From the NCBI GenBank assembly GCA_039621445.1, contig CP154954.1:10001521-10065520 (forward strand): a stretch of DNA of 64,000 bases, read 5' to 3'. Positions 4,359-33,512 of the stretch are shown in pieces. Origin of the DNA: Euglena gracilis (lineage: Eukaryota). Every line of letters begins with the position of its first letter. Positions within the stretch are counted from its first letter, which is position 1. The translations under genes and the position numbers were made by a program. The notes below the pieces were generated by a model. The model did not search any database, had not been told where the DNA came from, and worked only from the letters and a program-made list of their open reading frames with translations.

Positions 4359-4644
4359 GCCACCATGACCTGGCGTGTGGTTTTTGCTGCCCCCTGTCTT
4401 ATTGTCCCTACCGTACCCCCTTATTGCCCCCCCCCTTATTGTTTGTTTGGGGTCCCAGTGGGAAGGTGGTTGGTACAATAAGGGGGGGGGGTACTTGTTC
4501 ATTTCTGGAAATAACCGAAAAACGGAACGACGGGCGAACACGACGGGCGAAAAAAGAGGTTCTTTCAAAAGAAAATCGGCGCTTTCGGCGCCATACCCCC
4601 CCCCCTCTCTGGGAAGTGAACATGTCCAGTTTAGTTCGGAAGTG

Positions 4645-5905
4645 AACTGCCGTGTGTTCCGTTGCATGCCATCCGTGGCAGACGGTGACGTCCAGCGCCG
4701 TCGGTCTCCCTTCGGACCAAAAGTCCAGGAGGAGGTCCGCTGGGCGAAGGTGGCTATCCCGGGCTGTTGGCAGGCAAACCTCCTTCTGCACCCGCTGCCC
4801 GCTGTTGGACAAGGTTTGAAATAGCGCGTCCTGAACAGCGTTGTGGCGGGTTGCGAAGTTATTCCTGCGGCAGCAAAGGAGGTGGTCACCTTCCTTGTCG
4901 AGGGGCTGGTTGCATCCCGTGCATGGCTGGCTGACGTCATTCAGCACCAGGAGACCCAGCCACCACTTCAGCCCCAAGGTATACTCCTCGCTGGAGAAGG
5001 TGGTGTGAGAGTTGTTGGAGGGAGTTGCCGCCATCCAGCCGTGTCCGAATCCCGTGGCCTGTTCAAGGAGGCGGTTCTGGTCCCGGGGCCGAGCTTGGTC
5101 CACCAGGTCATCCATCGTCTTCTTGACCAGCTCATGATTCCACCACTTTTGTTTCCGAGGCTCTGAGTCCACGGAGACAATTCGTTGTGGGTTGTTGAGG
5201 AAAGTGGTGACGGTGGCGTGGTTCGCTCCTAGCCTGCCCCTGAGGTCGTCCAAAACGGGCGTGATGAGGGAGAGCTGTGGTGAGGTGGCGTAGCCGGGTA
5301 CACCCACTCGTCGTGCCCCGTCCGAGTAGAAATCTGCAAGGCCGGAGATCCTCGCCGCCGGCTGTGTGAAGGTTGGGATGCGGAGGCCACATCCGCCGCT
5401 TGACAAAGGCAGGGAAGCCTGTGTCCGCTGTTGTGTGTTCAGCGCCGTGCCCAGTACGTCCTCAAAGGCGTTCATAATTACCTCAGAGCAGCTCCTCACC
5501 CGGTCCTGGCTGCCATATGAGTTGGATGCTCGCAGGAGGTGGTTCACCTTGCAGCCATCCAGACCGCTCCGGAGCAAATGATGCGCTACCTGAGCGTCGG
5601 TAAGGGACGTAATGGTGGATGAGGCCTTCTCAATCTTGGCGGCGGCTTCCTCCCACGCTGTCGGTGTGGTGTTTGTGGACGCTGGGTGATCCACTGGGAC
5701 GCCCAGGACGGTGATGCCTTCCCCTGGGGTCCAGGGAACCACTTGCATCCTGTTGCAGCTTGGCGTACTCCTGGCTCCCGGGCCCCACATGACGCACTTC
5801 TGCAGGTTGAGGCCGAGCCCCACACGATGGGATTCTTGCAACAAGAAACGTAGGCAGTGTTCAATCCGGTCAGGTGTCCCGACCAGCAGGCCGTCGTCCA
5901 GGTAC
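4645..5905 (-). mobile_element. 3' part of RLE non-LTR retrotransposon A (RT C-terminus, CCHC knuckle, restriction-like endonuclease), truncated near 4645
   Basis: ORF 4408..6006(-): YLDDG, GLGLNLQKC, QASLPLSSGGCGL, CTGCNQPLDKEGDHLLCC, RHNAVQD, RPADLLL..ALDVTV. Joins in frame with 26669+ once the LTR element is removed. Confidence 0.92.
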
Positions 5906-6447
5906 TGTTGGCGCAATGGGTCCGCCAAGGAGTTGGTAGGAACAGCCAAATAGCGCAACCCACAGCGGAACAAATTAGAACCCAATCCAAAGGTTTGATG
6001 AAACAAAAATCTTTCTCTTATCCACAGGGTCCTTCTGTTTTCTTTCTACCACTCTTATCCCTTCTACTACCATCACCACAACTTGTACTTCACATTGGTG
6101 TTCCCAATTGTATCAAAGTCATTCATTTTGCTGCATTTGATTCAAGACTTCTTCCCAAGGGTTTCCAAAGGGAATCATTGAATCTTTCCCAAGTATTTTT
6201 TCACCCATTGTCCAGGTTTGTTCTTTTTTTCCAAATCAAAGTCCCTCAATTTTCTCTTGCAAACTGTTTGGTGTGAGATAGGACCTGAGCTCATCCTAGT
6301 CCGCACAAGGAAACAAACTTTTGCACCAAAGGGAAAATGCCAGGGGGGAATTCAAAAGTGGATCCTACGCTTCCGGAAAAGGGCAAAACCCAAATCCGGG
6401 ACCCTGTCTCCTCCCCGGCACCAGGACACGGGGGGGAAGGGGAAACA
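5906..6447 (+). repeat. 5' LTR (542 bp)
   Basis: Starts TGTTGGCG, ends GGAAACA; near-identical to 26127-26668 (about 6 substitutions seen by eye). Confidence 0.96.
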
Positions 6448-8199
6448 TGGCTAGCAGAGGTTGTTTCTTTGGAGAATAATTCAGAAAGGGTGAATCAGTT
6501 TTTCCCAGAAGAGGGGGGGGAGGATGCCACATTGCTTTTGCAACCCCCACCAACCAAAAATGGCCTTCAAGTTGCAATGAGGCCGGAAATGGGGTTGGTG
6601 GAGGTTGGAGGGGAAGAACCCGAAAATGCATCATTTACCACTCTACAGGCAGGTGGAGACCCTTCAAGTCCAAAATTAAGCTTACAGCTCCATTTTGATA
6701 CCTTAATCCCATCTGCTTTGTGGGAACAATTCATTTCCCAAAATGTGGCAAGGTCTTCCACCCCCCCTCAAAGGCAAGAGGACGTTCAAATGACACAACA
6801 CAACACCCCCCTCATGATTGAGGACCAAATGGCACCAATGGAATACACCTCAGATGAAGGGGAGGAGGATTTGAAGGACCAGAGGTTGGCCCCCTCCACG
6901 GAAAGAAAACACACTTTGAGTGAAACCTCTTCCGAATCAACAAATCCACACAAAAAATTGGCATGTGAGCCGGAAAATGTGGAAAATTCTTCCCAGGACA
7001 CTCAGAAAACCGAGACTTTTGATAACCCCTTTTCAGGAATGGATGAAATGCCTATGGATGGGGAGGGGGAATTGGAACCCCCCACAGAATTTTCTCGGGA
7101 ACAATGGGACAGTTGGGCAAATGGAGTGGAATCAAGGTTGGGAGGCATTTCTTTATGGATCAGTGACCTGTCGGACCACGTACAACAAAATTTGCAAGAT
7201 TTGAAAAGAAATCAGGGGGCGGATCATGAAAGGTTTGAGGCCACCCTATTGGAATTTCGAAAGGAAGCAGAAAAAAGAATGGAGGGTTCAAGTTCGGCTT
7301 TGGAGGAATTGCGCAAGAATTTCATTGGTGAGGCAAATGATTTTGTGTCCAAAATTATGAGGGACCTCAAGGGAAATGTTATTAACGTCCAAGAGGAGAC
7401 CCTGAAACGGTTTTCGGGAATGGCCACCTTGGACGATGCACATATGAAACAATTGTGTTGTGAATTACAATTGAAAACAAAGGAAAGAGTTGATTTTGCG
7501 GTTGGGACACATTTTGAAAAGTTTCGGCAGGAGTTGGCCTCAAAGTTTCAGGATGTTTTGAAGGTGTGTGGCACACAAAAGAGGGAAATCCAAGAATTAC
7601 AAAAATTTGTTGGGGTGGTTGTTCCCAAAGTTGAATCAATGGAAAATGAAGCACGTGAGTTGAAAAGGGAGTTTCAGGTCCTTTCGGGTTATGTTCAGAA
7701 AACCCTGAGTGTTGTGGAGTCTTTGGACCAGAAACAAAAGCAGGGATTTCAAGATCCACGGGTGGATGTTTTGGCGCAACAAATACACAACTTTCACACA
7801 TCATCTCAAAAATGTGATCAGTTGGAGAATTCTTTTTTACAAATAATGCAAGGCTTCTCTTGCTTGGAAAGGAACATTTTGGCCGTTTCTGAAGGAAGAA
7901 CAAGGGATGTGCAAAATTTACAATCAAATGTTGGTGAAGAAATGAGAACAATGAAGGAGAAGTTTTTTCAATTACAAGAAACCCAAAACCAGCAAAAGGG
8001 GAAGAAAGGGGGGGAGAGCCCCCCCAGTAAATCGGTGTTGGAAGACTTGGAACCCATGATCAAAAGGGCCATGAAAAGTGTACTGGGGGACGGGAAAGAA
8101 ATTGTACCCCAAGCCCCCCAAAACACACCCCGTTTTGAAACATCATCTGTGTCATCAAATGCGAATATTTCACAAACAGTGGAGGTTGGTGAAGATTGA
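6337..8199 (+). CDS. gag: Gag N-terminal portion: acidic linker plus long coiled coil (true start probably downstream of the PBS)
   Basis: 620-aa ORF between 5' LTR and pol; heptad-like E/K/L/Q-rich region; continues in another frame at 8196. Confidence 0.7.
   Translation: MPGGNSKVDPTLPEKGKTQIRDPVSSPAPGHGGEGETWLAEVVSLENNSERVNQFFPEEGGEDATLLLQPPPTKNGLQVAMRPEMGLVEVGGEEPENASFTTLQAGGDPSSPKLSLQLHFDTLIPSALWEQFISQNVARSSTPPQRQEDVQMTQHNTPLMIEDQMAPMEYTSDEGEEDLKDQRLAPSTERKHTLSETSSESTNPHKKLACEPENVENSSQDTQKTETFDNPFSGMDEMPMDGEGELEPPTEFSREQWDSWANGVESRLGGISLWISDLSDHVQQNLQDLKRNQGADHERFEATLLEFRKEAEKRMEGSSSALEELRKNFIGEANDFVSKIMRDLKGNVINVQEETLKRFSGMATLDDAHMKQLCCELQLKTKERVDFAVGTHFEKFRQELASKFQDVLKVCGTQKREIQELQKFVGVVVPKVESMENEARELKREFQVLSGYVQKTLSVVESLDQKQKQGFQDPRVDVLAQQIHNFHTSSQKCDQLENSFLQIMQGFSCLERNILAVSEGRTRDVQNLQSNVGEEMRTMKEKFFQLQETQNQQKGKKGGESPPSKSVLEDLEPMIKRAMKSVLGDGKEIVPQAPQNTPRFETSSVSSNANISQTVEVGED
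6448..6467 (+). promoter_or_regulatory. Primer binding site, resembling the complement of the initiator tRNA-Met 3' end
   Basis: TGGCTAGCAGAGGTTGTTTC directly after the LTR; resembles the TGGTAGCAGAG iMet-type PBS with one extra base. Confidence 0.7.
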
Positions 8200-9373
8200 T
8201 TCCCCTTGATGGAAACCCATTGTTCCCTTTGGGGGGTGGTGCCATACCGGTCATAAATCCCCCCATCGGATCAGTAAATTGTGCACACATACGACCCGTG
8301 GGTTTACGAGCGAATCCCTCAGCCCCAGCACCCAACGTACCATTTGCTGGTCATCTTATGGTGAGTCCCATACAATCTATTTTGGCGGGGGGGCTCCAAA
8401 TTCCTCATTTCAAAGGTGTGAAAATAGAGTGGCAACAATATGAAAGGGATTTGGAGGCAATGTTTGCAACTGCTACAAGCATAAATGGGACCCCCCTCAC
8501 CGATGCACAAAAGCTTTCCTTGTTGGATCTTACATTGGATCCTATTTCCAAAAAGAAGTTAAGGCTGATGAGAAGTCAAGGACAATCAGTAACGTTTGCA
8601 TCATTTTGGGCGGGAATGAAAATTGAGTTTGAGTCATCGAGCACCAACTTCGCCCGAGCAAAATGGGAGGGGGTGGTTTGCAAAAACCTTGGGAATGTGT
8701 CTTTTGAGGATTGGAGGGAGTTCGAAACTGAATTTTTGTCAGCTCTGAATCACCCTTCTTGATGGTGTATTGCTTTCCTTTTCTTTGAAATCCCCTTTGA
8801 TCATTAGTGAAATTTGGTTGTCCCACCTTCCCCCATGTGTTTGAAAGTTTCTTTGCTTGAATTTTCAAGCGAATAAATTCCAGCACCTCCCGGGTGAGCA
8901 TGTGCCTTTCCAAAATTCTCGCCTCAATTACCCTCCTGGATTCGGCAGTGACTTGTTTGTCCAAACATGTCAGAATTTGGGCTTCTATCAAATTTTAAAC
9001 TTGGATATGATATGTCTCGGGTGCAATTTTTTCAACACGTGAGGGGGTGAAAGCTCCCTTGGTGAATCTTCTTATGGCCAATTTGGCTTCTTCTGGGGTG
9101 AAATCTCCAATATTGCAAATGTATACCAACGGTTTGGAATCAAAACGTTTCATATCATTCTGAAAAATTTCATCCCTGAAACGGTGGGGGAGTTTGAGCA
9201 CCAGCAGTTTGTATGCCTCCTCCTCTGTGGCATCATGGACGTCTGCCAACCTTGGGAAAGGTAAAGGATATGCCCCTAAGGGTGGAAAATCCCAGGGCAA
9301 GGGTGCTGTGAACCCCCCAATACAGGTGCGTCAAGTTTCACAATCAAGCCAAGAAGCTACGTCCCTTCAGTAG
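8196..9373 (+). pseudogene. gag: Gag capsid-like/C-terminal region with an internal inversion (about 8745-9249)
   Basis: IPHFKG..W..YERDLE..LTDAQKLSLL capsid-like text on +; continues on - (LADVHDATEEEAYKLLVLKLPHRFRDEI); resumes on + as GKGKGYAPKGGKSQGKG...SLQ-TAG. Confidence 0.7.
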
Positions 9374-9437
9374 GGCTGCCAACGCCTTGGGAAGGGGTCG
9401 GTCCCAAGGCGTGGCGCCTATTCTATTCATGCCCCCC
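9371..9437 (+). promoter_or_regulatory. Candidate gag-pol stop-codon readthrough signal (UAG + 8-nt spacer + stem/pseudoknot)
   Basis: TAG 9371-9373 is in frame with pol; 11-bp stem ACGCCTTGGGA(9382-9392)/TCCCAAGGCGT(9402-9412); loop GGGG could pair with the C run at 9432-9437. Confidence 0.65.
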
Positions 9438-9442
9438 AACGA

Positions 9443-12400
9443 TTGGCAATGTTGGACCTGTTTTCTGGGTCGGGTGTTGTTGGTGATTGTTTTCGAAAAC
9501 ACAACTTCTATGTTGTGAGTCTAGATTTGGATCCCAAAACAAACCCAACCATTTTGGTCGACATTTTGCAATGGAATTATAAGCAATGGAATCCTCATTC
9601 TTTTTATGTCATCACCGCGTCATGCCCCTGTGAGGCATATAGCACGGCGCGTTCTATTTTGCCAAGGGATTTTGAATTCGCCGATGCTATTGTTTTGCAA
9701 ACCCTCAAAATTATTCAATGGTTCGATCCTAATTTTTGGTGGATTGAGAATCCAAGGAGGGGTTTCCTGAGAACGAGACCTTTTATGGAAAATATCCCCT
9801 ATGTCGATTTTGACTATTGCCAATTTTCATCATGGGGATACCAAAAACCAACCCGATTCTGGATTTCAGAGTCTTTCAAAGGAATGCCAGAAAGGTTATG
9901 TAACTTTTTGACCTGCGAAAACTTGCTCCTGGGCACCAAAGGACACAAAGTGAGACTGGGGGGTCCAAAAGGTACCGTTTCACAAAAAATGAAAGGTCGA
10001 ATCCCCCATGCGTTGATTGAGTGCCTCATCAACTGGGCGATTCAGACCGATTCTTTGGTTGCTGAAACAAGTGGTTTAACGTTTGACCATGCAAATAATT
10101 CTGCTACCCAATCTGCTAACACATCACACTCAAAACCTACCCCCACTCCCCGAAGAAAAGAGGTGCGTTTCACAATGCCTACCGAAGATGGAGAAATGGA
10201 AAGTCAGGCATCACAAGTTGTGGACCATTTACCTTTTGCAGAATTGACACAAGAAGAGCTCAGGGAGTGGGTTGGTGAATCAAACTCATCCCCCCCAAGT
10301 TTTTTAATGGGTGAGAATGAGTCCGTTTCTATTTACATTCCAAACAGAATGATTGGAGAAAGACATGCTTTTGCCGTTGGAAAATGCAATTTTGTGCACC
10401 AGGAGGATGTTTGGCAATTGTTATTGAGGGTGCAGGTGGGCCTCCCAAACGGAGAACAAAAATGTTTCAGAATTCTTGTTGACACGGGGGCAGAAGTGAA
10501 TTTGGTGAAAAAATCACTCATTTCTCAGCATTCTTTCAGAATGTCCTCACGACCTTTGAAGTTAATAGTGGCTTCGGGACAGGAAATGGAGGGTGGAAAA
10601 AGGGAGGTGGAACTTTCATTGTTTTTCGACCAATTTGAGAATGGAATGCCAGTGGTCGAAATTTTTGAAGCAAAAGGAATTTTCTATGAGGCAAGAATCG
10701 ATGTGGATGCCATTATTTCTTTCAAATGGTTGTATGAACACCAGTTGGGTGTTTTCCCTCACTTACACGCCTTGGCACGAAATGGGGATCATCTCACACT
10801 TTTGAGGGGTGTGAACAAACGGCACCGGTCATTTCACCCTTCACACTTAAGACTGAATGACAAGGGGAAGAGGGGGAGGCAAGGAAAAGACAATGATGCT
10901 CTTGTAACGGAGGGGAGTTTTGATTACACCTTCCAGCAAATGACAAATTGGGGTTTTTGTCTTCCCCCGGAGGTGTTTGAAGTGGAACCCCAATATCTTA
11001 CACGGAAAGAAATTTGTTACATTGCACAAAGATTGTCAGGGGAGGTGGGGGTGAGCACACACGTGGATGGATACATTTGTACTCCTGAAGGTGCCAGGAT
11101 TGTCAATGAGAGGGTGGAGAAGTTGCGTGCCTCCATTATGAATGACTATGGGGATACGGTCCTAAACCCGGAAATCATTTTTGACCCCCCCGTGAGAGGT
11201 CCCTTTGGGTATGCTTATATTCCGTTGAAACCCGATGCAAAACCCGTTCGGCAAAAACCGTTTTCTTTACACGGGGAGCGACAAGAGGCTTACAGGAAAG
11301 TTGCCCAGGGTTGGTTGGACAAAAAATATGTAGAGTTTCCAGAAAGGGGAAAAGTGGAATGGCTTGTTCAAGGTTTTGTGGTTCCCAAGAAAAAACCAGG
11401 AGAATATAGAGGAATTGTCGACATGAGAGGCCCCAATAGCCAAACCCTCCGGGGACATTACGTGATGCCTTTAATATCCGATTTGCTCGTAAGGCAAGGG
11501 GCAAAACAAATTTTCTCCATTTTGGATTTGAGGGAGGCCTTCCACCAACAACCCTTACACCCCGAAAGTCGGCATATCACATGCACATACACACCTTTTG
11601 GGATTGTGCAGTGGAGAGTCAATGCAATGAGTTTAATGAATGCTTCGGGACAATTTCAGCAAATGATGAATGACCGTTTGAGATCTGTCCAACACATAGC
11701 GGACCCATACATAGACGATATTTTGGCGGGCACACGGATTGAAAAGGGGGGGTGGGAAGATTTGCTCACAAAACACGACAAAGAGTTAAGGGAAGTTTTG
11801 GATGTGATGAAAGATGACCGTTTTGGTTGTGATCCACGGAAATGTGAATTTTTTGTGGAGGAAGTTGAGTTTTGTGGACACAAATTAAGTAAGGGGACGA
11901 GAAAGCCCGCCCCTGGAAAATTAAGGGCTATTGAGAATTGGGAATTACCCCCCACCATTACAGCCATGAGAGCATTTCTCGGTTTCACAAATTATTACTC
12001 GGAATACGTGAAAAATTACGCAGAAATTGTGGCCCCCCTTCAGGAAAAGTTGAAAGTACCACGAGCTGAAGGAAAAAAGGGGAGCAAAAAACGGATTGAA
12101 TATTCAGAGGAGGACATCCGATGTTTTGGGGAAATCAAAAGAAAACTTTGTGAGAGTTTGATTCTTCAAAGGGTAAACCCCGATAAACCATTTGTTTTAA
12201 GGGTTGATTCAAGTGGACGAGCGGTAGGGGCGACCTTGGAACAAATGAAGGACATTGAAACTTGTCCCACCGAGGAGGAGGTTCGAAAAGGCAAAACCGT
12301 CCCCGTGGCTTTCCTTTCACGTAAATTAACCACCTCACAAAGAAATTGGATACCCCGGGAGGTGGAAACCTATGCTATCATTTTGGCGTTACAAAAATGG

Positions 12401-12919
12401 GCTTCTTGGATTGGGGTGCAACCAATTTTGGTTTTGACTGACCACCAATCCCTCAAGGATTGGTATACCGAACATGTGGACACCCCGTGTGGACCTATTA
12501 ATAGACGGGCACGGTGGCATCAAATGCTTTCCAAATTTGATTTGACTATTGGCTTTGTGCCGGGAAAAGAAAATTTTATTGCCGACATTTTAAGCCGATG
12601 GGCTTACCCGGCAAGTGAAGCATTTCTCGATGTATCAAAACATGGGAGTTTGAAGGATCTACAGGAAATGAGGGAAATTATCGAATCTGAAAAAGCGGAT
12701 GAAAAATTTTGCATGGTGATTCGACTTCATGCATATCCAGACTCCAAGGATATTTTTGGAGTACGCACCCCAAGTGGGTTGAAGACTTCCGAGGGACATG
12801 ATTTGATTCAAAAAACACGCACGGAGGAAAATTTGCAAGAATCACCACTCATGGAAGGGGGTGGCCCCACAAGCGAGGCGAACCCCCCCCGTGAGAAAAT
12901 TATCAAAAACTATGGGTGA
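9443..12919 (+). CDS. pol: Pol polyprotein: C5-cytosine DNA methyltransferase, aspartic protease, reverse transcriptase, RNase H
   Basis: LDLFSGSG (motif I, 9461-9475), ASCPCEAYS (catalytic PC, 9626-9631), WIENP (motif VI, 9746-9754), YQKPTRFW; ILVDTGA (10481); LDLREAFHQ, YIDDIL (11708); RNase H VDSSGRAVGA, E-TYAI, TDHQSL, NFIADILSR. Confidence 0.93.
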   Translation: MAMLDLFSGSGVVGDCFRKHNFYVVSLDLDPKTNPTILVDILQWNYKQWNPHSFYVITASCPCEAYSTARSILPRDFEFADAIVLQTLKIIQWFDPNFWWIENPRRGFLRTRPFMENIPYVDFDYCQFSSWGYQKPTRFWISESFKGMPERLCNFLTCENLLLGTKGHKVRLGGPKGTVSQKMKGRIPHALIECLINWAIQTDSLVAETSGLTFDHANNSATQSANTSHSKPTPTPRRKEVRFTMPTEDGEMESQASQVVDHLPFAELTQEELREWVGESNSSPPSFLMGENESVSIYIPNRMIGERHAFAVGKCNFVHQEDVWQLLLRVQVGLPNGEQKCFRILVDTGAEVNLVKKSLISQHSFRMSSRPLKLIVASGQEMEGGKREVELSLFFDQFENGMPVVEIFEAKGIFYEARIDVDAIISFKWLYEHQLGVFPHLHALARNGDHLTLLRGVNKRHRSFHPSHLRLNDKGKRGRQGKDNDALVTEGSFDYTFQQMTNWGFCLPPEVFEVEPQYLTRKEICYIAQRLSGEVGVSTHVDGYICTPEGARIVNERVEKLRASIMNDYGDTVLNPEIIFDPPVRGPFGYAYIPLKPDAKPVRQKPFSLHGERQEAYRKVAQGWLDKKYVEFPERGKVEWLVQGFVVPKKKPGEYRGIVDMRGPNSQTLRGHYVMPLISDLLVRQGAKQIFSILDLREAFHQQPLHPESRHITCTYTPFGIVQWRVNAMSLMNASGQFQQMMNDRLRSVQHIADPYIDDILAGTRIEKGGWEDLLTKHDKELREVLDVMKDDRFGCDPRKCEFFVEEVEFCGHKLSKGTRKPAPGKLRAIENWELPPTITAMRAFLGFTNYYSEYVKNYAEIVAPLQEKLKVPRAEGKKGSKKRIEYSEEDIRCFGEIKRKLCESLILQRVNPDKPFVLRVDSSGRAVGATLEQMKDIETCPTEEEVRKGKTVPVAFLSRKLTTSQRNWIPREVETYAIILALQKWASWIGVQPILVLTDHQSLKDWYTEHVDTPCGPINRRARWHQMLSKFDLTIGFVPGKENFIADILSRWAYPASEAFLDVSKHGSLKDLQEMREIIESEKADEKFCMVIRLHAYPDSKDIFGVRTPSGLKTSEGHDLIQKTRTEENLQESPLMEGGGPTSEANPPREKIIKNYG

Positions 12920-14587
12920 GGGCGGCCCTACAAGCGAGGCGAACCCCCCCATAGGAAATTCTGGTCAAAGTGTCGACACAACACCTCAAATTGATGCACC
13001 CCATGATTCGAGCCTTGCCAAACCAGATGTAAGTGGGAGCTCTGACAAGGGGGGGGAGGAGTGCACGCCACCTCTTCTTGTTTCCCATGAAAATCTTGGT
13101 TCAATATGGGATCGGGATTGGGGGGATGCATACGCGTCATGTCCCACGTGGGGGGAACCATGGAAAAGTATCTCAGAAAAATCGGGGGATTGGCCACAGA
13201 ACTTCAAACGTTTTGATTCCCTGATTTACCAAGGAGAAAGGTTGTGTGTTCCTTTGAGTCTACAGGAACACGTCATCCATTCACATCATGACTCCTTTGG
13301 CCATTTGGTTGGGGAAAAGTTATGGAGTCAAATTGGGCATCGATATGCATTTGCAGACATTGCTTGCGCAAAGAGTTTTTCTTTCACCGTGGGAACAATT
13401 TGTTACGTATGTCAAGCTTGCATTCGGCCAAAAACTCTCCATGGGCCCATGGAATATACGGAGATCCCCCCTAAATGCATGGTAAGTGTTGCTCTTGACA
13501 TGTTCAAAATGACTTTTGTCAAGTGGGGGGGAAGAGACTTCAATTTCATGGCGTTATGTGTTGATCGCCATTCGGGTTGGATTGTAGTATCCGCACATTT
13601 GGAAAAGGGATTGACGGGGGCAATGGTGGCCCAAACAATGCTTTTGCACGCTTGGAGGCCTTTTGGAATACCAACCATTATATCCAGTGATAGGGGTGCC
13701 CATTTTGTTGGGGCGTGGTGGAAAACAATGTGCACATTTTGGCATTCGGCAAGCATTTTCCCAAGCATACCATCGTCAAGCAAATGGGAGGGCTGAAATG
13801 GCCGGACAACAAGTCATGGAAATTTTGCGGAAATTATATGTGTACAAGAAAATTTGTTGGGTTGAGGCACTGCTTCAAGTTTTGGATACCATACACGACA
13901 CAATCGGGGAGTGTGGTTTGAGACCATACGAAATTCTTTTCGGAAGGCAACGACAAAGGGGGGGAATACCCTATACACCCACCCGAGAATGTGAGGATGC
14001 CACTGAATGTTTTGAAAGAATGGCCTTTATTGACAAACAAGTGGCAGAAACTTTGAATACCATCCATGAAAAACGACTTTTGACAATGAAGCCAAAAAAA
14101 ATTCACAGATGTGGAATACACAATTGGACAAAAGGTGTGGTATAGACGACCGCCGAACAGTGGAAACAAATTGGAAACACGTTGGTTGGGACCCGCCGTT
14201 ATTAAGGAAAGGCGGGGCACGAATAGGTACATGTTGGAAATCAAACCCGGGGTAGAAACGGGGGTACACAATTCTTTCCTCAAACCTTTTAAAGAGGACG
14301 ATTTGGTGGGTAGACCAATTCATCTTTTTTATCATCAAAGAACCGAACCAGATTTGGAAGCTGGGGTTGATGAATGGGAGGTGGATGAAATTTTGGATCA
14401 CAAAGTGGACAAAAGGGGGAATTTGCTTTTCTTAACCCATTGGAAGGGTTTTCCTATGAGTGAGAACACGTGGGAACCGGTTGGAAATTTCATACACCGA
14501 TACTCTTCAGATTTTGTGAAATATTGCAACCAAAGACAACTTCCCATAGACATCACCAAGTTTTTGTCGGAGGAACCAACCTTGTGA
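12861..14587 (+). pseudogene. Integrase plus chromodomain, split across three frames (12861-13796, 13663-14145, 14111-14587)
   Basis: HHCC (HDSFGH..CYVC), DDE core (VALDMF, SDRGAHF, QANGRAE), WLGP (GPY/F-like), chromodomain WEVDEILDHK..FLTHWKGFPMSENTWEP. Confidence 0.9.
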
Positions 14588-14951
14588 AAGCTTCCCCCCC
14601 ATTCCTCAAAATTTTCATTCAATGGGTTGCTTCCTTGCCCATTTGAGGTTTTTTTCACCCCTTTGTGTTCCTTGGTTTCAGTTTCTTTGCTTTCTATTTC
14701 CTTCAATTCAATGGCTGCTTAACAGCGCCAAGAGGCTGCCAATAAAGCGCCCAATGAGGCAGCTTAAAGCGCCCAATTTCCAAGGTATTTCCCTTGCTAT
14801 GTTTTCTTTGACCCATGAGAGCCATTGCTTTGTGACCATGGCATATATGTGCATTACCCGTTTTTAAATCCTCATTCCAATGTATTTTTGTTTTTCAATT
14901 CATTCTTGCCACTGGTAAATCACCACTTTGTGAAGCAGAAATACTCAAGGG

Positions 14952-15228
<277 letters not shown>

Positions 15229-15419
15229 ATTCATGCGTGCACAAATACATATTCAGGAGTGTTCATCGAACCCCGGCACGCCATTTCAGAAAAAGGGAGA
15301 AAGAGGTGACAAGATGAAGGTGTGCATCAATATCGTTGTTGTTTTGTGATCTCCCCAAGCCTTGAGAGCCCCAATCCGTGTAGCAATATGAGGAAGGCAT
15401 TCGGTTGTATGGACCCTGT

Positions 15420-24290
<8,871 letters not shown>

Positions 24291-24655
24291 GGGGGGGGAC
24301 GGATTAATATTCAGGCCCCCCCCGAGGGGGGGGTTTTTGGGAGACAAATTGAATTGGGCCAACAAAAGATATCGGAACGGGACACGGACCTTGATGCACA
24401 AGGGGTGGAAAAACAATTCAAAAATGGACGGACGTGCATGGACGAAATACCCACGTTTTAACACATGCACATAGATGCACAAATTGAAATAGAATGCACG
24501 GTATGATAACCGATGTAGTAGAAGCGTACGAGAGAGTGCGCGATTACACCCTTCCCACCTCCCCCTCATCCCGAATGCCGCCCGGAGGGAGGCTAACACT
24601 TTGGTGGAAGGGGTGAGGATAAACCATTCATGCGCGCGCACGAGAAACACCACAC

Positions 24656-25174
24656 GTGCAAGCAAGTGATGGCTGCATGGAGCGCCATGGAAGGGGGGGG
24701 GACCCACAAATTCCAATGGACGATTCTCTCACAATCGAAGGTCTTATTTCACAAGCCCCTCGCAATGTTTTGATGGAACGAATTTTGGAAGGAGCAACAA
24801 ATCACCCCCCAATTGGCACAACAACATACGCCCCCACACGCAATGTGCCTTTGGATGCGCCATTGGGCAGCTTGGGACAAATTAACACAACCTTGCCAAG
24901 ACACACACTTTTGGGTTGTGAATGCCCCGTCTTATGCCGACAACACGGGTTATGCATGCACAATGCGAAGGCGAGATGCAATAACGGTGAAATTATAAGC
25001 GGTTGTGACCAATGCTTAACGGTAAAGCAAGAAGTTTGCATTTGTTTGGCAATTGACCGTTGCAATCGGCACGACCATTGCCTTTGCACACGTAAGGGGT
25101 TAGCCAGAATAGCGTACACCCCAAAATGCCTGAAGTGTCGAGGCATTCAAGAAAAGGCACGTGCGATGGAATGA
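24656..25174 (+). CDS. Cys/His-rich extra ORF inside the LTR element, function unknown
   Basis: 172-aa ORF with a dense Cys cluster (CECPVLC..HGLC..C..CDQC..CIC..CNRHDHCLC..CLKC), followed by a Pro/Thr-rich frame at 25369-25803. Confidence 0.35.
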   Translation: MQASDGCMERHGRGGDPQIPMDDSLTIEGLISQAPRNVLMERILEGATNHPPIGTTTYAPTRNVPLDAPLGSLGQINTTLPRHTLLGCECPVLCRQHGLCMHNAKARCNNGEIISGCDQCLTVKQEVCICLAIDRCNRHDHCLCTRKGLARIAYTPKCLKCRGIQEKARAME

Positions 25175-26115
25175 ACGGGGGGGGGAGACGGATGGAGTGA
25201 TCGGTGAAAAGCGCCCATTTTGTTTTTACTACCTTCGTTTCAATGGTTATGGTGTTGGTGTGTGTGACTCTTACTCTTCCAATGAAAATTACATCACGGC
25301 TGCCAACGGCGCCTTTTTGAGAATTCAACGCTTTTCACACCCCAACCGCAAAGTGTTGTCACCTGCCGTTGGCGCCCCGCCGGCGAAGGCGGCCACGCCG
25401 CCGTTTGGCGGACATGATCGTCATTGCCGTGCGGGAGGCCATGGCCAACATCAACCCACCGACAACACCTACTCCTACACCACCAACTACTACTACTCCC
25501 CTATCTACTACACCAACCTCAACTCCATCTACCGCGACCCCGAACCGCACTACGCCAACAACCCCGCCCCCGAGACCAACACCTACTTCAACCCCTTCCA
25601 CACCGTCGACGGCTGTCGGGAGCGGCGGCGCGGGCGGCGGAGTCGGGCCCTGGTGGCCGCGCGGAGCCCGCGGCGGGCAATGGCGGCGCTTCGCCCCCTA
25701 CCAAGCCCCCTTCGCACCACCACAATACCCGCAGCCGCAATTCTACCCTTTCCCTCCCCCATACCCGTCCCTTCCTTACCCCCCGCCTTTCCCATATTAC
25801 TGATGAATCCATTGTGGCTCCATGGGAGCCATGGTGGTGGCATGCCCTGTGGATCTGAGAAGGAAAACCCCCTTTTTTTCTTTACATCATAAGGCTGTTC
25901 CATAAGACAAGAGCGGAATCCAACACAAATACTCCCAAGAAATTGCTTTTTTTTCCCCGATCACCGAATTTTTATCCTATGTTTTTTTTGTTTTTATTTG
26001 TTTCACATTCTGTGCCCAAGATGCCAAGACCAAGCTCGGAAAGAAATAAGAATGGGGGTGGGGTGTTTGAAAGCGCCCACAAGTGGCCGCAATGGTGCGA
26101 GCCGGGTTGGCTCGC

Positions 26116-26126
26116 AAGGGGGGGAG
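26116..26126 (+). promoter_or_regulatory. Polypurine tract
   Basis: AAGGGGGGGAG immediately before the 3' LTR. Confidence 0.9.
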
Positions 26127-26668
26127 TGTTGGCGGAATGGGTCCGCCAAGGGGTTGGTAGGAACAGCCAAATAGCGCAACCCACAGCGGAACAAATTAGA
26201 ACCCAATCCAAAGGTTTGATGAAACAAAAATCTTTCTCTTATCCACAGGGTCCTTCTGTTTTCTTTCTACCACTCTTATCCCTTCTACTACCATCACCAC
26301 AACTTGTACTTCACATTGGTGTTCCAAATTGTATCAAAGTCATTCATTTTGCTGCATTTGATTCAAGACTTCTTCCCAAGGGTTTCCAAAGGGAATCATT
26401 GAATCTTTCCCAAGTATTTTTTCACCCATTGTCCAGGTTTGTTCTTTTTTTCCAAATCAAAGTCCCTCAATTTTCTCTTGCAAACTGTTTGGTGTGAGAT
26501 AGGACCTGAGCCCATCCTAGTCCGCACAAGGAAACAAACTTTTGCACCAAAGGGAAAATGCCAGGGGGGAATTCAAAAGTGGATCCTACGCTTCCGGAAA
26601 AGGGTAAAACCCAAATCCGGGACCCTGTCTCCTCCCCGGCACCAGGACACGGGGAGGAAGGGGAAACA
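26127..26668 (+). repeat. 3' LTR (542 bp)
   Basis: TGTTGGCG...GGAAACA, followed by the GTAC target duplication. Confidence 0.96.
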
Positions 26669-27183
26669 GTACCAGCTGTTCCACAGCAGCTGGCCATCCC
26701 TGGTGATCTGCTCCAGCAGAGGCTGCAGCGCAAGGGCGAACCCTATGGGGCCCAACGGGCAGCCTTGGTGTGTGCCTTTCTGTGATGGGATAGAGCCACC
26801 ACCACAGAACAGGGGAACGTGCCCACTGTACGCAAATCTCAGGAAATTGAAAAGACTGGGGGTGCGCGTTTCAGCCTCCGTTAGGATCGCCCCGCGGTCC
26901 ACTGTGTTGAACGCGTTGGAGTAGTCCACCTGGAGGGAAACCCAGGGCGAGGTGTCCCCCAGCTGAGTGACCAGGTGTTGCATGCCCAGAGCGACGGCCT
27001 CTGCCGCGTTTCGCACCCCAACCCCGACCTGGGTAGGGGCGAGGGTCGCGACCTCAGATCTGGTGTTTGGTGTCTGGAGGCAGTCTTGGAGGTGGCTGGG
27101 TCGCAGCCCAGATGGCCCCGGTGCCGATCCCCGCGGGAAACGACGAATGGCCTCCTTCAGTCTGTCCTCCCAGTCAGGGGTGT

Positions 27184-27914
27184 GGAGGCGGACGGACGGA
27201 CGGACAGACGGCTGGTGAAAAAAGCGAAGGTCCGGACGGACGGCTGACCTTGTGGGCTTGGTCCAGACGGCTGAAGAAAATGCACTTGGTCCAGCTAGTC
27301 GGCTGGCCGGCCGGCCGGCTGGCCGGCCAGCCGGCCAGCCGGCCGGGTCTTTGGAAGCGCAGGCGAAGGGCAAGAAAGGTCGCGTAGATCTCCAACCGGA
27401 AGTAACGGTCCAGATCTCCACACAACATGTCAGATCTTTGTACGATGTCCGCTGAGCTGCCCCGTACTACAAGGTTCGTATCAGAGGTGATGCACGGGCC
27501 TATTTCTGTGGTATTTATCATTCAACCTCAAGATGATTATTTCCAACTTCCTGTTTTTTCTGAGGCGGGCACAATAATTTTCATAAAAGTACACGGATGA
27601 TAATGACATCGCCCCCCGTGGCATAGCGGTCGTGTGGTTAGCGTGTGAGCGGTAGGTCGCGGGTTCGAATCCCGCCGGAGGGGCAACTTCGCGTTTTTCC
27701 TGGTCTGACGTGATGAGAAGAGGGGAGCCGTGACTGCTTTTCGGAAGGAAGGAAAAATTTTTTTTGGTCCGGCCGGCTGGCAAGATAGTCATTGGTCCGG
27801 CTTGACGGACGGCTGGCGAAAAAATGCTTCGTCCGGACGGACGGCTGGGCGTCCAGCATTGGTCCGGCTGAAGAGGTCCGGACGGCTCGGACGGACGGAC
27901 GGCCAGCCGCCCCC
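27184..27914. mobile_element. 731-bp TIR insertion in the RT of element A, carrying a tRNA-like sequence
   Basis: Termini GGAGGCGG/CCGCCCCC, TGT duplicated on both sides, (CGGA)n subterminal repeats; removal restores the reading frame FPEKH-TPDWED. Confidence 0.8.
27611..27685 (+). ncRNA. tRNA-like sequence (pseudo-tRNA or SINE head) with Pol III A and B boxes
   Basis: A box TGGCATAGCGG (27619-27629); T-arm GCGGG-TTCGAAT-CCCGC; GCCCC..GGGGC-A acceptor-like stem; anticodon arm does not fold well. Confidence 0.65.
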
Positions 27915-28660
27915 TGTGTTTCTCGGGAAATGGGCGGACGTAACGCGGCAGGCGGTTGGTATCAACGTTCCTGCCGGCAGGGTGTAGCCTTTCCAGGGCA
28001 GCCCAGACTTCTGGGTCGTCAGGCTGGTGTGCGCCCTCGGACAGCAGGATTTGAACTGCCTTCGCGGATGCCCCTTCTGCGGTGAGGGTGCGAACGCGTC
28101 GCGTCATTGCTTCACTGAGGGCGGTGGGCTGTGTTCTAGAGCGCTTTTCCGCCCTAGTTTCTACAATGGAGTGTCGTGTCTGGGTGTCCTTCAGAGCCTC
28201 TGTCAATAGGGTAGCGTAACGCCCTTCGCGGAACAGCCTTGTTCGTCTCAGCAGGATGGATTCCAGCTCTGCTGGCGGCGGTGGTTTGGTTGTTGATGCG
28301 GGACGCAGGACAAGCTTTGGGAAACATAGCACGGCAAACAAAGCCGCGTCCGAGGGTGTGTGTGTATAGGCCGTGATGGCGTCTGCCAAGGTGTCGAAGA
28401 CAGGTTGTTGGCAGGCAGAGGGTAGGTGGATGAAGGTCGGGATTCTCTGTTGAAGGACGTGGGTGATCTCGCACGGGGGAGTGCCCACCACCAGGCTGTG
28501 CATTGGCTGTCCTCGAAGATTGGATTCCTGACCTACGTCGTTAATGACCATCGCCGCGTCGCGTTCCGGGTGAGCGAGGTCCAGGAAAAAGGTTGTCGTG
28601 TTCCCTGGCGTCCGTTTCGGTTGGTGCATTGCGGGGGGACGGCGGTGCCGGACGCTTGGC

Positions 28661-28714
28661 TGGTCCAGGGTTCTCTTCCACATCCCCGCAGGTGAGGAGG
28701 CTACCCCGCCCGCG
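28661..28714 (-). other. 2A ribosome-skipping peptide #3, RGRGSLLTCGDVEENPGP
   Basis: Full DVExNPGP consensus; last 17 residues identical to T2A (EGRGSLLTCGDVEENPGP). Confidence 0.93.
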
Positions 28715-29209
28715 GTTTGCCCCTCCCGTGTGGACGCCGCGCAGCCTCGGGCTACGGTGGCCGTTTTTTGAAAGGATTTGGGCGGACGTCGTCTCGGCCG
28801 GTGGGACCTGTACAGCGTGGAGGAGGGAGCGTGGGGTGGGGTTTAGCCTGAAGGCCGGGTGGCAAATTGGTGGTTTGGGTGCGGCGAAATGTTGGGGCAG
28901 TAGTGTGGGACAGTCCCAAGGCCATTGCCAAAGCCCACAGCGTTGGCACCAGTGAGGGGAGGTTCCCCGGATGTCCCAGAGGGCGTCCAGGTAGATGAGG
29001 AAAGTCCGGCCCGCGTAGTCCCCCAGGTGGAATATTTCGCCGCCATGGATGGTGGTTCGCTCTTTGATAAGGCGGTGCTGCCCCGGGGAGAGGAGGGGTG
29101 CAAGCGGGTATGGTGTGTACGTGGTGCGTGGCCGGCGATGCCGGATGCTAGCGTTGGGGGCGGGGCTTGCCGGCTGCGGGGCACTGCTGAGTGTCCTGCG
29201 GCCAGGGTG

Positions 29210-29605
29210 GCATATCCGCAGGGCCGTGAACGCCCAGGTGCGGGCCGGGAGGAGTGCCGTCCCCCTGGCGCGGTAGATAGGGCACCGCGGCAAGGTCAAG
29301 CTGCCCGAGGAGATGCTCCGTAGGGTAGGCAGCACAGTGGACCACTCTGGTGCAATGAGGATGATGTTGCCCCCATGGCAGAGGACGTGTTCAAGTACAC
29401 GGGGGAGCAAGGAAAAAGGCGGGTTGCACCATAAGGGGTTTGGCAGGTTCCAGTCCTGGAGGAAAGCATCCTCCCTGTGCGACCAAAAGTGGGCTAGTTG
29501 TGTGTTGTTCTGGTGGGCAAAGGCGTCGATGGTGGGCGGGTTATGGGGCGAAAGGGCCTGTACTACCGTGGCGAACCAGGGGGGTCCAGCATAAAGTCCT
29601 CACGT
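29210..29605 (-). CDS. Dam-like DNA N6-adenine methyltransferase domain (phage-Dam/DIRS-MT type)
   Basis: Manual translation: EDFMLDP/WFATVVQALSPHNPPTIDAFAHQNNTQLAHFWSHREDAFLQDWNLPNPLWCNPPFSLLPRVLEHVLCHGGNIILIAPEW; IDAFA 29516-29530, NPPF 29414-29425; 1-nt frameshift in a G6 run near 29580. Confidence 0.85.
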
Positions 29606-29649
29606 GGCGCTCGGCGGGGGAGGTCCTCAGAGAGCCCACCAGCGCCTAT

Positions 29650-29700
29650 GGGGCCGGGATTACTCTCCACGTCTCCGGCGGTGAGGATGGCGTCCCCCCT
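29650..29700 (-). other. 2A peptide #2, RGDAILTAGDVESNPGP
   Basis: Manual translation (not in the ORF track); full DVESNPGP consensus. Confidence 0.9.
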
Positions 29701-29768
29701 GCCATTCGATGCATGAGGGGAAATGGGAATTGGGCTGCCAGCATGTTCCCACCCATCAGAAGCCCTTT

Positions 29769-29959
29769 TGTTTCACAACGGCTTTTCAGCAAAACGGCGA
29801 AAAAGCCGTTCAGCCATTTAGCAAAACGGCAAAAAAGCCGTTTAGCCGTTGGCAAAACGGCAAAAAAGCCGTTTCGCCGTTAGCAAAACGGCGAAAAAGC
29901 CGTTTTGCCAGCCAAAGGTGAGAAAAATGGCAAAAAAGCCGAAAAGCCGAAATGAAACA
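29769..29959. repeat. Small insertion of tandem AAAACGGC(G/A)AAAAAGCCGTT palindromic units with imperfect TIRs
   Basis: TGTTTCA..CGGCTTTTC / GAAAAGCCG..TGAAACA ends; about 30-bp internal repeats. Confidence 0.6.
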
Positions 29960-30542
29960 CATACGGGTGTGAACACAGGTGTGGGTGCTGGCGCGAGGCT
30001 GCTGCTGGAGTCATCGACGATGACCTGCTTGTGGTCGCGTGAGAAGTCATCAGGCATGTCATCGTTTTCATCGTGTTCGTCGTCGCTACCAGAGTCGCTT
30101 TCCATGTCAGAGAGAGACGGCGGTGGACAGATTTGAAGGTGGCGGAGTAGGGGTGATGGGTAAGGGGTTTCGACCACCCGCATACCTTGCACCGCACTAG
30201 CCACCACTCGCCATTTGGCAGTGACTCCAGGTGGTGTACTTCCCAGCGCCAAGTATCCTCCCGTACGGTGGCGAGGGAGAAGATGTTGCCAAAAGGCTTT
30301 GCTGCCTGGCAGTGATGGGACTGCATTTCTCGGAGGGATGACAGGTTGATGTGCTGAGAGCACATGCGGCATCTTGCAAATTCGGTCCCTGGGCCGATCT
30401 GGGCCGGGGCCCCAGAGGATGGACCCGCTGTGGCCGGGGTGCGCAGACGTAGCCACCTCCAGCGCTGGCCATTCCAGTACAGTTCATCCCATACCTCGTC
30501 TGGTGTCAGGGGGGCTGTTTGGCTGGCTGGACCCCCCGAGGA

Positions 30543-30590
30543 AGGGCCCGGGTTTTCTTCGATATCCCCACAGCGCAGGATATCCCTGTG
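30543..30590 (-). other. 2A peptide #1, HRDILRCGDIEENPGP
   Basis: In ORF 29880..31277(-); full DIEENPGP consensus. Confidence 0.9.
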
Positions 30591-31919
30591 GCATTTTTGC
30601 CTTTGGTGGTTGAGCCACATGCCTGCTGGCCACATGGGGCCGCCGGCCGTGTGGGTGTCCACTATGCACCAGGTCCCCCGTGATTTGGCGAGGGGCAGCC
30701 ACCAGACCCCCCCCCCCTGGGGCATAGCACATGGGACGTACAGGAGGAGCTGGACCTCATCGTCTGCCAGGTCAGACCAGGTGCGTCCGGGGGGGTGAGG
30801 GGGAAGGGGGGCCGCATTGATATGGATGTTTTCCAGCCAGTGATCCACGAGGGCTTTTTTGTATTTTTTTCTTTGGCCGGTCCATACCCCCCAAATGGAG
30901 GCGTCCGTCGAGGACAGCACAGACCAGTCGTCTGCGGCTGTCACCGAGTTTGTTGGCAGCTTTGCTGGGGTTTGGGCTTTACCAGCCCTGGCTTGTGCAG
31001 CATTCAGTGGTGTTTTTCTTTCCTCCACTATCTCTGCCACTTGCTGTTTTTCCAGTGTGGACCTGGTCCTTAATTTTTCCAGGACTTTCCAATTAATTTT
31101 CCACACTTTTGCTTCCCCATGGATGCCTGGAAGGACCGCCCAGCCACAACAGCAGCAACAGCTGCAGCCCCAAATGGGGCCACAAATGGGCAGCCAAATA
31201 GGGACCCATGTGGGCAGCCTTCTGGGCAGCCCAGTGGGGAACATCCCCACTATGAGTGCCAGTGCAACAGCCAACAACCATCAAGGGCTGCAGCTCCCCA
31301 CCGACCTGCTGCGACAGCTGCTGTTGCAAATCATGTTGCTGCTGATTGGAAATGTTACAAATCAAAATGGCAGCAACATGCCCAATGCTGTCCCACAATT
31401 AATGGCCCCCCCAGCTGGAACTATTGGACCCTTTCCCCCACAAGTTCTCCCCCTTGTGCCCTGCCCTATGCCCTGCCCAAGCCAAAGGTGGGAAGGGGGG
31501 GGGAACAGGAAGTATTTGAGGTCCCAAAAGAGACAAGACCCCCCCCAAAAAATGCACCACAACACCCCAAATACAGGTGTGTGTGTGTGTGTGTGTGTGG
31601 TGGCCAGGGGTGCGGTAAGGGCTGCTAAGGCTGCTGCTGTGGCTGGTGGCGGAGGTGTCGAGGGATGTACTTGTGCTGGTGCTTTTGTCGTAGGTAGTCT
31701 TCGTAGGCTTCTTCTTCTCTTTTTCTTTTTCCGGTTCGTCCCTGCAGGTACTCCACCTTGTCGGCCAGGGCGTCGATCTTGCCAGCTAAGCTCTGCATGT
31801 TCTGAGCCACCAGGCTCACTTGGTCCAGCACCGTAGTCAATTTTTTGTTCAGGATGACGTTGTCCAGCGTCACCTCCAGCACGGCCGGTGGACCTTCTGG
31901 GGCTGCCGCCCCGACATGG

Positions 31920-31945
31920 CGAAAAAAAATAGACACTCAGAAAGT
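31920..31945 (-). other. Euglenid spliced-leader exon, followed by CC-ATG
   Basis: ACTTTCTGAGTGTCTATTTTTTTTCG matches the Euglena SL as I recall it; no GT donor follows. Confidence 0.9.
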
Positions 31946-32108
31946 AAGAACGGCTAGGCTGGTCTCAAAATCGCGAAAGTTCTAGCGTAGGCGACCACGC
32001 CAGGTATTTCCTAATTGTGTGTCAGAAAAGTGTTCACCTCCAACAATGTCTTCGGGCTTCAAAATATACCCCACCAGGGGCTTTTACTTGTCCGACATGA
32101 TATGCAGA

Positions 32109-32134
32109 CGAAAAAAAATAGACACTCAGAAAGT
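32109..32134 (-). other. Second euglenid spliced-leader exon copy
   Basis: Identical 26-mer, followed by TCTGCATATCATGTCGGAC. Confidence 0.9.
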
Positions 32135-32979: not shown

Positions 32980-33512
32980 CCAGGGGGTGTTCCCCCCGCG
33001 TCCCCCCCGCGTCCCCCCCCGCGTCCCCCCCGCGTCCCGGATTTTGGCCGGGCACGTTTTTTGCTCGACCAAAGGAAAATTACGTACAAATTTAGGTGAC
33101 GCCAAAGAAAACGTGTTGGGGTGGTTGGGCCACGGTTCCCCCCCGCGTCCCCCCCCGCGTCCCCCCCCGCGTCCCGAACCACCCCCCAGCGACCATTGCC
33201 CAAGGGTTTGCAGGAATTATTCCGACTCTGGCCCATCGCGCTTCACTGGAAGAGGAATCTGACGACCTCGTGTTGGAATCCCCGCCACCCACTCAGCAAA
33301 GGTCAGCGGAGGGGGTGTTCCCCCCGCGTCCCCCCCGCGTCCCCCCCGCGTCCCGGATTTTGGCCGTGCACTTTTTTGGTCGACCGAAGGAAAATTACAT
33401 GCAAATTTAGGTGACGCCAAAGAAAACGTGTGGTGGTGGTTGGGCCACGGTTCCCCCCCGCGTCCCCCCCGCGTCCCCCCCCGCGTCCCCCCCCCGCATC
33501 CCGAACCACCCC
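32980..33512 (+). repeat. About 330-bp-period direct duplication with (CCCCCCGCGT)n units
   Basis: 32980-33190 is repeated at 33310-33512. Confidence 0.8.

Follow-up and report, generated by a model that had tools for sequence, protein, structure and literature searches.

The 64,000-nt stretch of Euglena gracilis DNA analysed here (assembly GCA_039621445.1, contig CP154954.1, positions 10,001,521 to 10,065,520; hereafter the window) carries on its minus strand the remains of a retrotransposon of the kind without long terminal repeats (non-LTR), whose coding region holds three 2A peptide motifs in series ahead of a reverse transcriptase (RT). The element spans 31945-26669 and 5905-4597, the two parts being split by a nested LTR retrotransposon. 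From its 5' end it comprises a spliced leader (SL), an N-terminal region, a C2HC zinc-finger cassette, a Dam-like methyltransferase (MTase) and an RT followed by a CCHC motif and a restriction-like endonuclease (RLE). This copy is dead: four or more frame breaks or small insertions have accumulated in it, along with a composite insertion of 733 nt, a deletion in the RT and the insertion of the nested 20.8-kb LTR retrotransposon. An initial annotation of the region 26669..31945 had described a virus-like polyprotein made as one open reading frame (ORF) of the long interspersed nuclear element (LINE) type. The element is a retrotransposon and not a virus, and of the MTase and RT-RLE modules that were placed in this region, the MTase and the start of the RT do lie inside it, whereas half of the RT and the whole RLE are actually located at 5904 to ~4597.

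A six-frame motif scan of the window, with 100 order-1 Markov simulations as the chance baseline, detected the pattern DxExNPGP four times (simulation mean 0.0), three of them on the minus strand upstream of the RT, and bare NPGP 12 times versus 6.2 expected. The three minus-strand motifs are not attributable to chance. Site 1 (30543..30602) ends in HRDILRCGDIEENPGP, with GDIEENPGP at 30543-30566; site 2 (29650..29709) ends in GRGDAILTAGDVESNPGP, with GDVESNPGP at 29650-29673; and site 3 (28661..28720) ends in RGRGSLLTCGDVEENPGP, with GDVEENPGP at 28661-28684. All three match the full class-A consensus, and the scan reproduced exactly the coordinates at which they had been annotated as a one-strand series ahead of the RT. 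Site 3 is identical in 17 of 18 residues to a widely used laboratory 18-mer, found in 61 papers by text search, which we take to be the T2A peptide named in the initial annotation; the earlier count of 17 in 18 holds against this 18-mer. Such likeness is a family trait, because the family described below holds 82 distinct natural variants of D[VI]ExNPGP; contamination by a synthetic construct, considered as the origin of site 3, was ruled out by the same variety. In the window copy the 2A sites occupy three different frames (stop-to-stop ORFs 29880-31280, 29563-29772 and 28541-29599), and the single ORF proposed at first does not exist here.

An uninterrupted ORF is found in relatives of the element, which we examined among proteins from environmental assemblies (all 63 near-length matches and the 27 best of 40 longer ones, those with E <= 6.6e-13, come from jgi, ena or lgn), the 40 longer proteins having been matched with the RT-RLE piece as query. 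The best match, P0001 (E 2.8e-139, 51% identity), is a protein of 2111 aa encoded by a single ORF on a 6766-nt contig, in which the C2HC finger (735) and the MTase (887) stand between 2A sites at residues 651, 827 and 1116, and YLDDG (1597) and the RLE (1982) follow. Its order, 2A - C2HC zinc finger - 2A - Dam-like MTase - 2A - RT-CCHC-RLE, is the order of the window; P0010 (1601 aa, one ORF) has a layout like that of P0001, and 2A is in frame within one ORF in P0001, P0010, P0013 and P0015. The presence of the same series in the uninterrupted ORFs of P0001 and P0010 removes the doubt, voiced together with the first description, that the segments might belong to unrelated elements.

Ten of the 15 closest matches (E <= 1.3e-64) have at least one 2A-type ..NPGP, in all ten of the strict form D[VI]ExNPGP, and P0010 and P0015 additionally carry a near-variant (GVEANPGP in P0015). 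The remaining five are short forms of 977-1042 aa whose start is 455-513 aa ahead of YLDDG, close to the expected position of the last 2A; in those closest relatives that carry 2A, the last site is 481-603 aa ahead of YLDDG. No 2A was found in any of the 25 more distant of the 40 longer matches, and of 80 distant loci from metagenomes (26-36% identity) only 2 had a strict 2A; carrying several 2A sites is therefore a trait limited to the closer subgroup. At E <= 1e-3 the MTase module is represented by 474 sequences, and among the best 150 of them the strict motif occurs at least once in 42, at least twice in 19 and five times in one. The NPGP sites in 226 family proteins (100,024 residues) number 103, no two of them sharing the same 20-mer, and 82 fit D[VI]ExNPGP. 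In these 82 sites G-8, D-7, E-5 and NPGP are invariant by the selecting pattern; L-12 is found in 65 and L-11 in 51, and the flanks diverge. The consensus of the 82 reads GRGxSLL(S/T)CGDVExNPGP, which includes the Leu-rich stretch of about 10-14 residues that suits a class-A 2A on its upstream side, and the motif is kept across proteins of 35-50% identity.

The segments bounded by these sites are variable in arrangement. The zinc-finger cassette (~100 aa, PxxGPSS..GPSS..Cx2Cx12-14Hx1-4C in an alignment of 13 sequences, that of the window and 12 inter-2A cassettes) has a 2A at either end in every case where the sequence includes both ends. It precedes the MTase in the window, P0001 and P0010 and follows it in P0015, P0056, P0060, P0062, P0071 and P0073; P0009 and P0013 are without MTase, and 2A sites stand back to back in P0008, P0013 and P0060. 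The idea that 2A sites act as sockets for accessory cargo, put forward in the initial annotation, draws its main support from this variation among relatives in the order, number and presence of the 2A-bounded zinc-finger and MTase cassettes; the support is comparative in kind.

In the N-terminal region, module 1a (31625..31936), which in this copy is out of frame with the ATG, was modelled from its single sequence by AlphaFold2 (AF2) as one long helix over residues 17-87, with a predicted local distance difference test score (pLDDT) of up to 96, and returned weak coiled-coil-type matches only in Pfam. Module 1b (30603..31280), inside ORF 29880-31280 and upstream of 2A site 1, has no Pfam match. 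When the N-terminal region was compared by blastp with 251 fetched proteins it was matched only over its zinc-finger part (P0044, 2e-5), and no homologue of 30171-31280 was found among 5315 candidates of 203-648 aa. Of the coiled-coil and Q-rich module described earlier the long helix stands, but the region is broken over three frames and lacks detectable homologues. Module 2 (30171..30542) is the zinc-finger cassette, with Cx2Cx14HHC at 30309-30371 and tblastn matches to P0010 197-293 and P0015 350-476; its acidic tail (29976..30168) lies one frame off the finger in the window copy, and finger and tail together agree with the Zn-finger-like plus acidic module of the initial annotation.

Between 2A sites 2 and 3 lies module 3a (29195..29599), whose assignment as an MTase was borne out by Pfam: PF05869 is matched at 33.2-33.6 bits, above the cut-off of 28.1, over profile positions 26-71 only of 169. 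It contains IDAFA at 29516-29530 and NPPF at 29414-29425, the latter being nearly invariant in 51 sequences. In the AF2 model, residues 11-110 reach a pLDDT above 90, and the model's best fold match is PCIF1/CAPAM (Foldseek E 3.4e-4; Z 10.2, 125 residues aligned, rmsd 3.0), followed by ErmE (Z 8.8), T4 Dam (Z 8.6) and Escherichia coli Dam (Z 8.2), with KsgA also among the matches. On the basis of this model, module 3a is predicted to be an N6-adenine-type enzyme acting on DNA, RNA or a hybrid of both; we left the substrate range this wide because the best fold match is the enzyme that forms N6,2'-O-dimethyladenosine (m6Am) in RNA caps. A search with an MTase hidden Markov model (HMM) found no second MTase in the window. 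Module 3b (28721..29194), a linker with a small beta-rich part, contains CQRCGLWQWPWDC at 28910-28948 and is conserved in P0001, P0004 and P0041.

The N-terminal domain of the RT protein (27919..28660; tblastn to P0001 1174-1360) has a frame shift near 28586. The fingers and palm (26669..27185) have lost ~66 aa of the fingers by an internal deletion near 27079, as judged by tblastn against relatives, and stop at the Y of YLDDG. Read on the minus strand across the nested LTR retrotransposon, the sequence gives ..WNSW-Y on one side and LDDG.. on the other, in frame by coordinate arithmetic. The RT therefore continues at 5904, since YLDDG, the YxDD palm motif, is restored across the junction 26669/5904. 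The second part of the element (4597..5905) holds the remainder of the RT, the thumb, the CCHC and the RLE, with YLDDG at 5890-5904, a CCHC at 4870-4923 reading CTGC..GDHLLCC, and then the PD..D-type endonuclease motifs RPADLL (4729-4746) and LDVTV (4681-4695); P0001 1564-2030 matches it at 49.7% identity (tblastn). Similarity to relatives stops near 4597, close to a run of G near 4606. Past this run, repeat-like CGCCCGTCGT units were observed at 4400-4606 (-), so that the element has either lost its last ~80 codons and 3' end or had them moved elsewhere: a search beyond ~4597 did not recover the 3' end, and self-BLAST of the element as it stands, short of this end, gave no terminal repeats.

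The Pfam score for the RT in 26669..31945 is borderline (RVT_1, 29.5 bits where the cut-off is 29.6; 49 bits in P0001), so that the RT module first assigned to this range is upheld there only weakly. A profile built from 13 relatives gave R2 proteins as its best matches in the PDB (9nl3_A, E 2.4e-16; 9dou_A, E 4e-16), with a second aligned stretch over the CCHC/RLE (R2 residues 985-1096; conditional E 5e-6, independent E 0.95). By this profile comparison the RT/RLE of the element appears R2-like, and its earlier assignment to the RLE type is borne out. Pfam found neither a recombinase nor an RNase H in the ORFs of the element, and the position of the MTase upstream of the RT and the CCHC-RLE at the C-terminus are unlike the DIRS1 order.

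Other copies were examined in contigs of two DNA runs from differently labelled organisms (X1 and X16) aligned to 26669-31964. In total 6422 and 1468 pieces aligned, at 90-100% identity and over 30 of 30 bins, and the element is therefore a member of a repeated family. At the frame breaks these copies depart from the window: a joint 29741->29976, from which a 234-nt insert is absent, is present in X1 and X16; four nucleotides are added behind 30169 (depth 893/1568 in X1) and one behind 29578 (997/997 in X1, 39/39 in X16); and one nucleotide is missing at 28586 (1974/16471, from two X1 contigs and none in X16). By coordinate arithmetic, each of these differences brings the flanking pieces into one frame. 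Loose contig ends at 27185 and 27079 run on into RT-protein sequence, from which it follows that 27186-27918 is an inserted repeat.

We consider, with a probability of about 0.75, that the locus represents a decayed copy of a euglenid R2-like RLE non-LTR retrotransposon whose intact members are expressed from one SL-capped mRNA with a single ORF of about 1,600-2,100 codons, split by 2A sites into separate proteins. At each class-A 2A (StopGo) site the ribosome would free the nascent chain after ..NPG and restart at P. Four products would be expected: from the N-terminus a protein that evolves fast and is helical in this copy, then a small protein with the C2HC zinc finger, the Dam-like N6-adenine methyltransferase and an RT-CCHC-RLE enzyme. 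Inter-2A cassettes would be exchangeable, their number and order varying among relatives, and a series of 2A sites may in addition set a gradient of product levels, the RT being the lowest. In a host that trans-splices its messengers, StopGo would keep all genes on the RNA being copied.

Several observations weigh against this interpretation. Module 1 is without detectable homologues, and part of it may not be translated. The relatives stem from environmental assemblies and not from this genome. The in-frame form at 28586 accounts for only ~12% of contig depth, and many copies share the break. Two RNA runs gave 18 and 46 reads, of which 18 and 42 overlapped the stretch in part only and fell for the most part on inserted repeats, and provide no evidence either way on expression. 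According to the available text of a recent preprint, heterologous eukaryotic Dam domains yielded no N6-methyladenine (6mA) in E. coli (10.64898/2026.05.21.726589). Finally, in the accessible part of another, most of the retrotransposon 2A-like peptides assayed lowered protein abundance instead of giving clean skipping (10.64898/2026.06.17.732966).

This last result bears on an alternative that we regard as unlikely, namely that the 2A-like sites are mainly translational attenuators, where stalling and drop-off cut the amount of downstream RT and a fused multidomain protein is the main product. In the same text the 'reduction' class makes up 70% of the ORF1p and 59% of the ORF2p retrotransposon 2A-like peptides, and some sites of the family studied here are degenerate (GDIQENPGP at 34305-34331 in the window; GVEANPGP in P0015), as would suit such a role. 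However, the three sites of the element fit the class-A consensus in full, site 3 closely resembling the 18-mer in wide use, and the shuffling of 2A-bounded cassettes is more easily explained if the cassettes act as free proteins, as the split-polyprotein interpretation supposes.

The 5' end of the element raises a second alternative. At 31945 the element begins with ACTTTCTGAGTGTCTATTTTTTTTCG; behind it stand CC and an ATG (31915-31917). The host is E. gracilis, and this sequence is quoted as the spliced leader of that species (PMC6242988). The exact 26-nt SL occurs twice in the window, at 31920-31945 and at 32109-32134 (-), against 0.00 expected; the two copies are 189 nt apart, on the same strand as the element, and their upstream flanks are unlike. 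RNA reads part from the window sequence just beyond 31945. P0003 encodes the SL core at residues 8-15, and on its contig the core stands behind yet another flank; no SL core was found in the 80 distant metagenome loci. Rfam detected neither an SL RNA gene nor a 5S rRNA gene in the window, where a 21-nt dinoflagellate SL motif also had 0 matches at up to 3 mismatches. A dinoflagellate origin, to which the DNMT-like LTR element had seemed to point, was rejected on this ground and on that of the two exact Euglena SL matches.

SL genes are targeted by RLE-type elements in other Euglenozoa, and the SL at the 5' end could accordingly mark a site-specific insertion into SL RNA genes, in the manner of CRE/SLACS/CZAR or NeSL, a proposal with which two SL copies 189 nt apart on the strand of the element would be in keeping. 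We hold this to be improbable: the entire 26-nt SL, and not a part of it, precedes the element, and the flanks of the SL copies differ from each other and from that of P0003. Because the SL flanks differ and Rfam finds no SL RNA or 5S gene, we favour the derivation of the SL from the reverse transcription of a trans-spliced mRNA over the targeting of SL genes. The second SL heads a 163-nt stub that also has ATGTCGG but no ORF; SL and stub may have formed the start of a different retrocopy with an SL at its 5' end, which then served as the landing site of the element.

A third alternative, that unrelated nested elements or a fault of the assembly produced a chimeric series in which the 2A motifs are neutral relics, accords with a heavily nested locus whose pieces lie in different frames, but it is most implausible given that independent contigs show the same order in single ORFs, that the 2A motif is conserved among such divergent proteins, and that contigs from DNA runs of two differently labelled organisms span the breaks.

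Beyond the preferred interpretation of a 2A-split polyprotein, we tentatively suggest a wider scenario, which we think possible and rather less likely to be right than wrong. A euglenid lineage would copy its own SL-capped mRNA, with the SL as 5' terminus, and the string of StopGo sites would answer the limit of one cap and one ORF that trans-splicing imposes on an organism, providing sockets at which zinc-finger and adenine-methylase cassettes are gained, change their order or are lost. The free methylase might mark the cDNA or RNA and thereby steer new copies to permissive chromatin of the 6mA type.

The insertions that interrupt the element are of several kinds. The nested LTR retrotransposon (5906..26668 (+), 20,763 bp), which is foreign to the element and splits its RT, has LTRs at 5906-6447 and 26127-26668 that form a 542-bp direct repeat with 98.9% identity (self-BLAST), TG..CA ends and a GTAC target duplication at 5902-5905 and 26669-26672; its pol has RVT_1 and RNase H matches and weak integrase matches. 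The pol ORF (9374-12919) opens with a C5-cytosine-methylase-like stretch (PF00145, E 0.0086, 16 bits, not reaching the cut-off of 22), and ~9 kb of the interior (about 15.4-24 kb) are a tandem repeat. This LTR element may be related to the Euglena LTR elements bearing DNA methyltransferases (DNMT) in the 2026 preprint on Dam elements; no Dam domain was found in it with the MTase HMM. The insert at 29742..29975 (-) is made of 31-nt tandem units according to Tandem Repeats Finder; it is a high-copy mobile insert, with a contig depth 10-30 times that of the neighbouring element sequence. Its units show internal inverted symmetry, and its ends on the element's strand are TG..TG. In the composite insertion of ~733 nt (27186..27918 (-)), two GC-rich arms of GTCC/GGCC repeats, the deepest part of the stretch (~540,000 in X1), flank a tRNA-like sequence at 27612-27684 (+), to which Rfam gives 33.6 bits as tRNA and for which ARAGORN calls an odd 4-base anticodon.

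Head to head with this element lies a second non-LTR element of another subfamily (33411-36812 (+) and 61244-62166 (+)), which has no nucleotide similarity to the first and no MTase. Two 2A motifs, GDVEANPGP ending at 33989 and the degenerate GDIQENPGP mentioned above, are both located in its intact 413-aa ORF (33411-34652). Its RT is at 35551-36516 (RVT_1, 1e-13) and the matching RLE pieces are 24 kb away, at 61.2-62.2 kb, a distance that suggests further large insertions. Satellite arrays occupy 53600-61000, with copies offset by multiples of 78 bp and a related 210-bp piece at 2321-2529 in opposite orientation (self-BLAST).

If our interpretation is correct, the use of 2A extends from elements of the apurinic/apyrimidinic endonuclease (APE) type with a single site to the older RLE/R2-like type, and 2A is used as in the polyproteins of RNA viruses, several times per ORF, each site bounding a whole domain, with a variable order of cassettes. 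The recently reported distribution of Dam-like methylases over retrotransposons gains a non-LTR carrier, the SL at the 5' end ties retrotransposition to trans-splicing, and the family offers at least 82 natural class-A 2A variants on which sequence-activity rules might be tried. Already known are non-LTR elements of the APE type that carry 2A, and DIRS and LTR elements that carry Dam MTases. In the literature as far as its searchable text goes, 2A was not found described in RLE-type elements, in Euglena or beside a Dam MTase, although supplementary tables may list such entries. Two surveys of 2A from 2025-26, in the text available, include examples from dinoflagellates and algae as well as 580 RT-bearing contigs that carry 2A; Euglena, RLE elements and MTases are not mentioned in that text.

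Among known systems of the APE type, which include L1Tc/ingi, likewise from Euglenozoa, there is also an in-frame class-A D(V/I)ExNPGP in a single-ORF non-LTR element and a proposed release of N-terminal functions as a separate product; the 2A-like sequence of L1Tc was reportedly described by Heras in 2006. There, one site lies within ORF2p's N-terminal part, whereas the Euglena family is RLE-type and has 2-5 sites that bracket whole accessory domains. A single N-terminal site is also what the available text of Odon 2013 (PMC3708506), which names the CRE clade, gives for APE-type elements. With R2 (9nl3, 9dou; kin of CRE/SLACS/CZAR) the element shares an RT followed by a CCHC and a PD..D-type endonuclease, and a zinc finger upstream of the RT; in R2 the finger is inside the RT polypeptide, whereas the Euglena family has a 2A-bounded finger cassette plus an MTase, and neither rDNA nor SL genes were seen to be its target.

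The DIRS1-like and DAM-LTR elements, as presented in the accessible text of their preprint (10.64898/2026.05.21.726589), resemble the element in carrying on a retrotransposon a short Dam-like domain with an N-P-P-aromatic pocket. Their MTase is in the Pol of LTR or DIRS elements; that of the Euglena element, a non-LTR retrotransposon of the RLE type, is upstream of the RT and has a 2A on either side. The same text notes Euglena DAM elements with LINE/L1-like RTs as possible nesting or artefact. An LTR-like context of a Dam-MTase element can arise by nesting, as it has in the window, and this would give a concrete reading for the odd Euglena 'DAM-LTR with LINE-like RT'.

Picornavirus- and iflavirus-like polyproteins, in the available parts of the reports on them (PMC11512398; 10.64898/2026.09.24.754024), are also divided by several StopGo sites, sometimes in tandem, as in P0008, P0013 and P0060; they belong to RNA viruses, in contrast to the Euglena family, a cellular retrotransposon with RT-RLE and with neither capsid nor RNA-dependent RNA polymerase. 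Finally, SymbioLINE-DNMT of dinoflagellates, as far as the accessible text describes it (PMC5890265), is a LINE-type element of protists that trans-splice, and it likewise encodes a DNA methyltransferase upstream of its RT. Its enzyme is a C5-cytosine MTase in a separate ORF1, whereas the Euglena element has a predicted N6-adenine-type MTase placed in the same ORF as the RT, behind a 2A.

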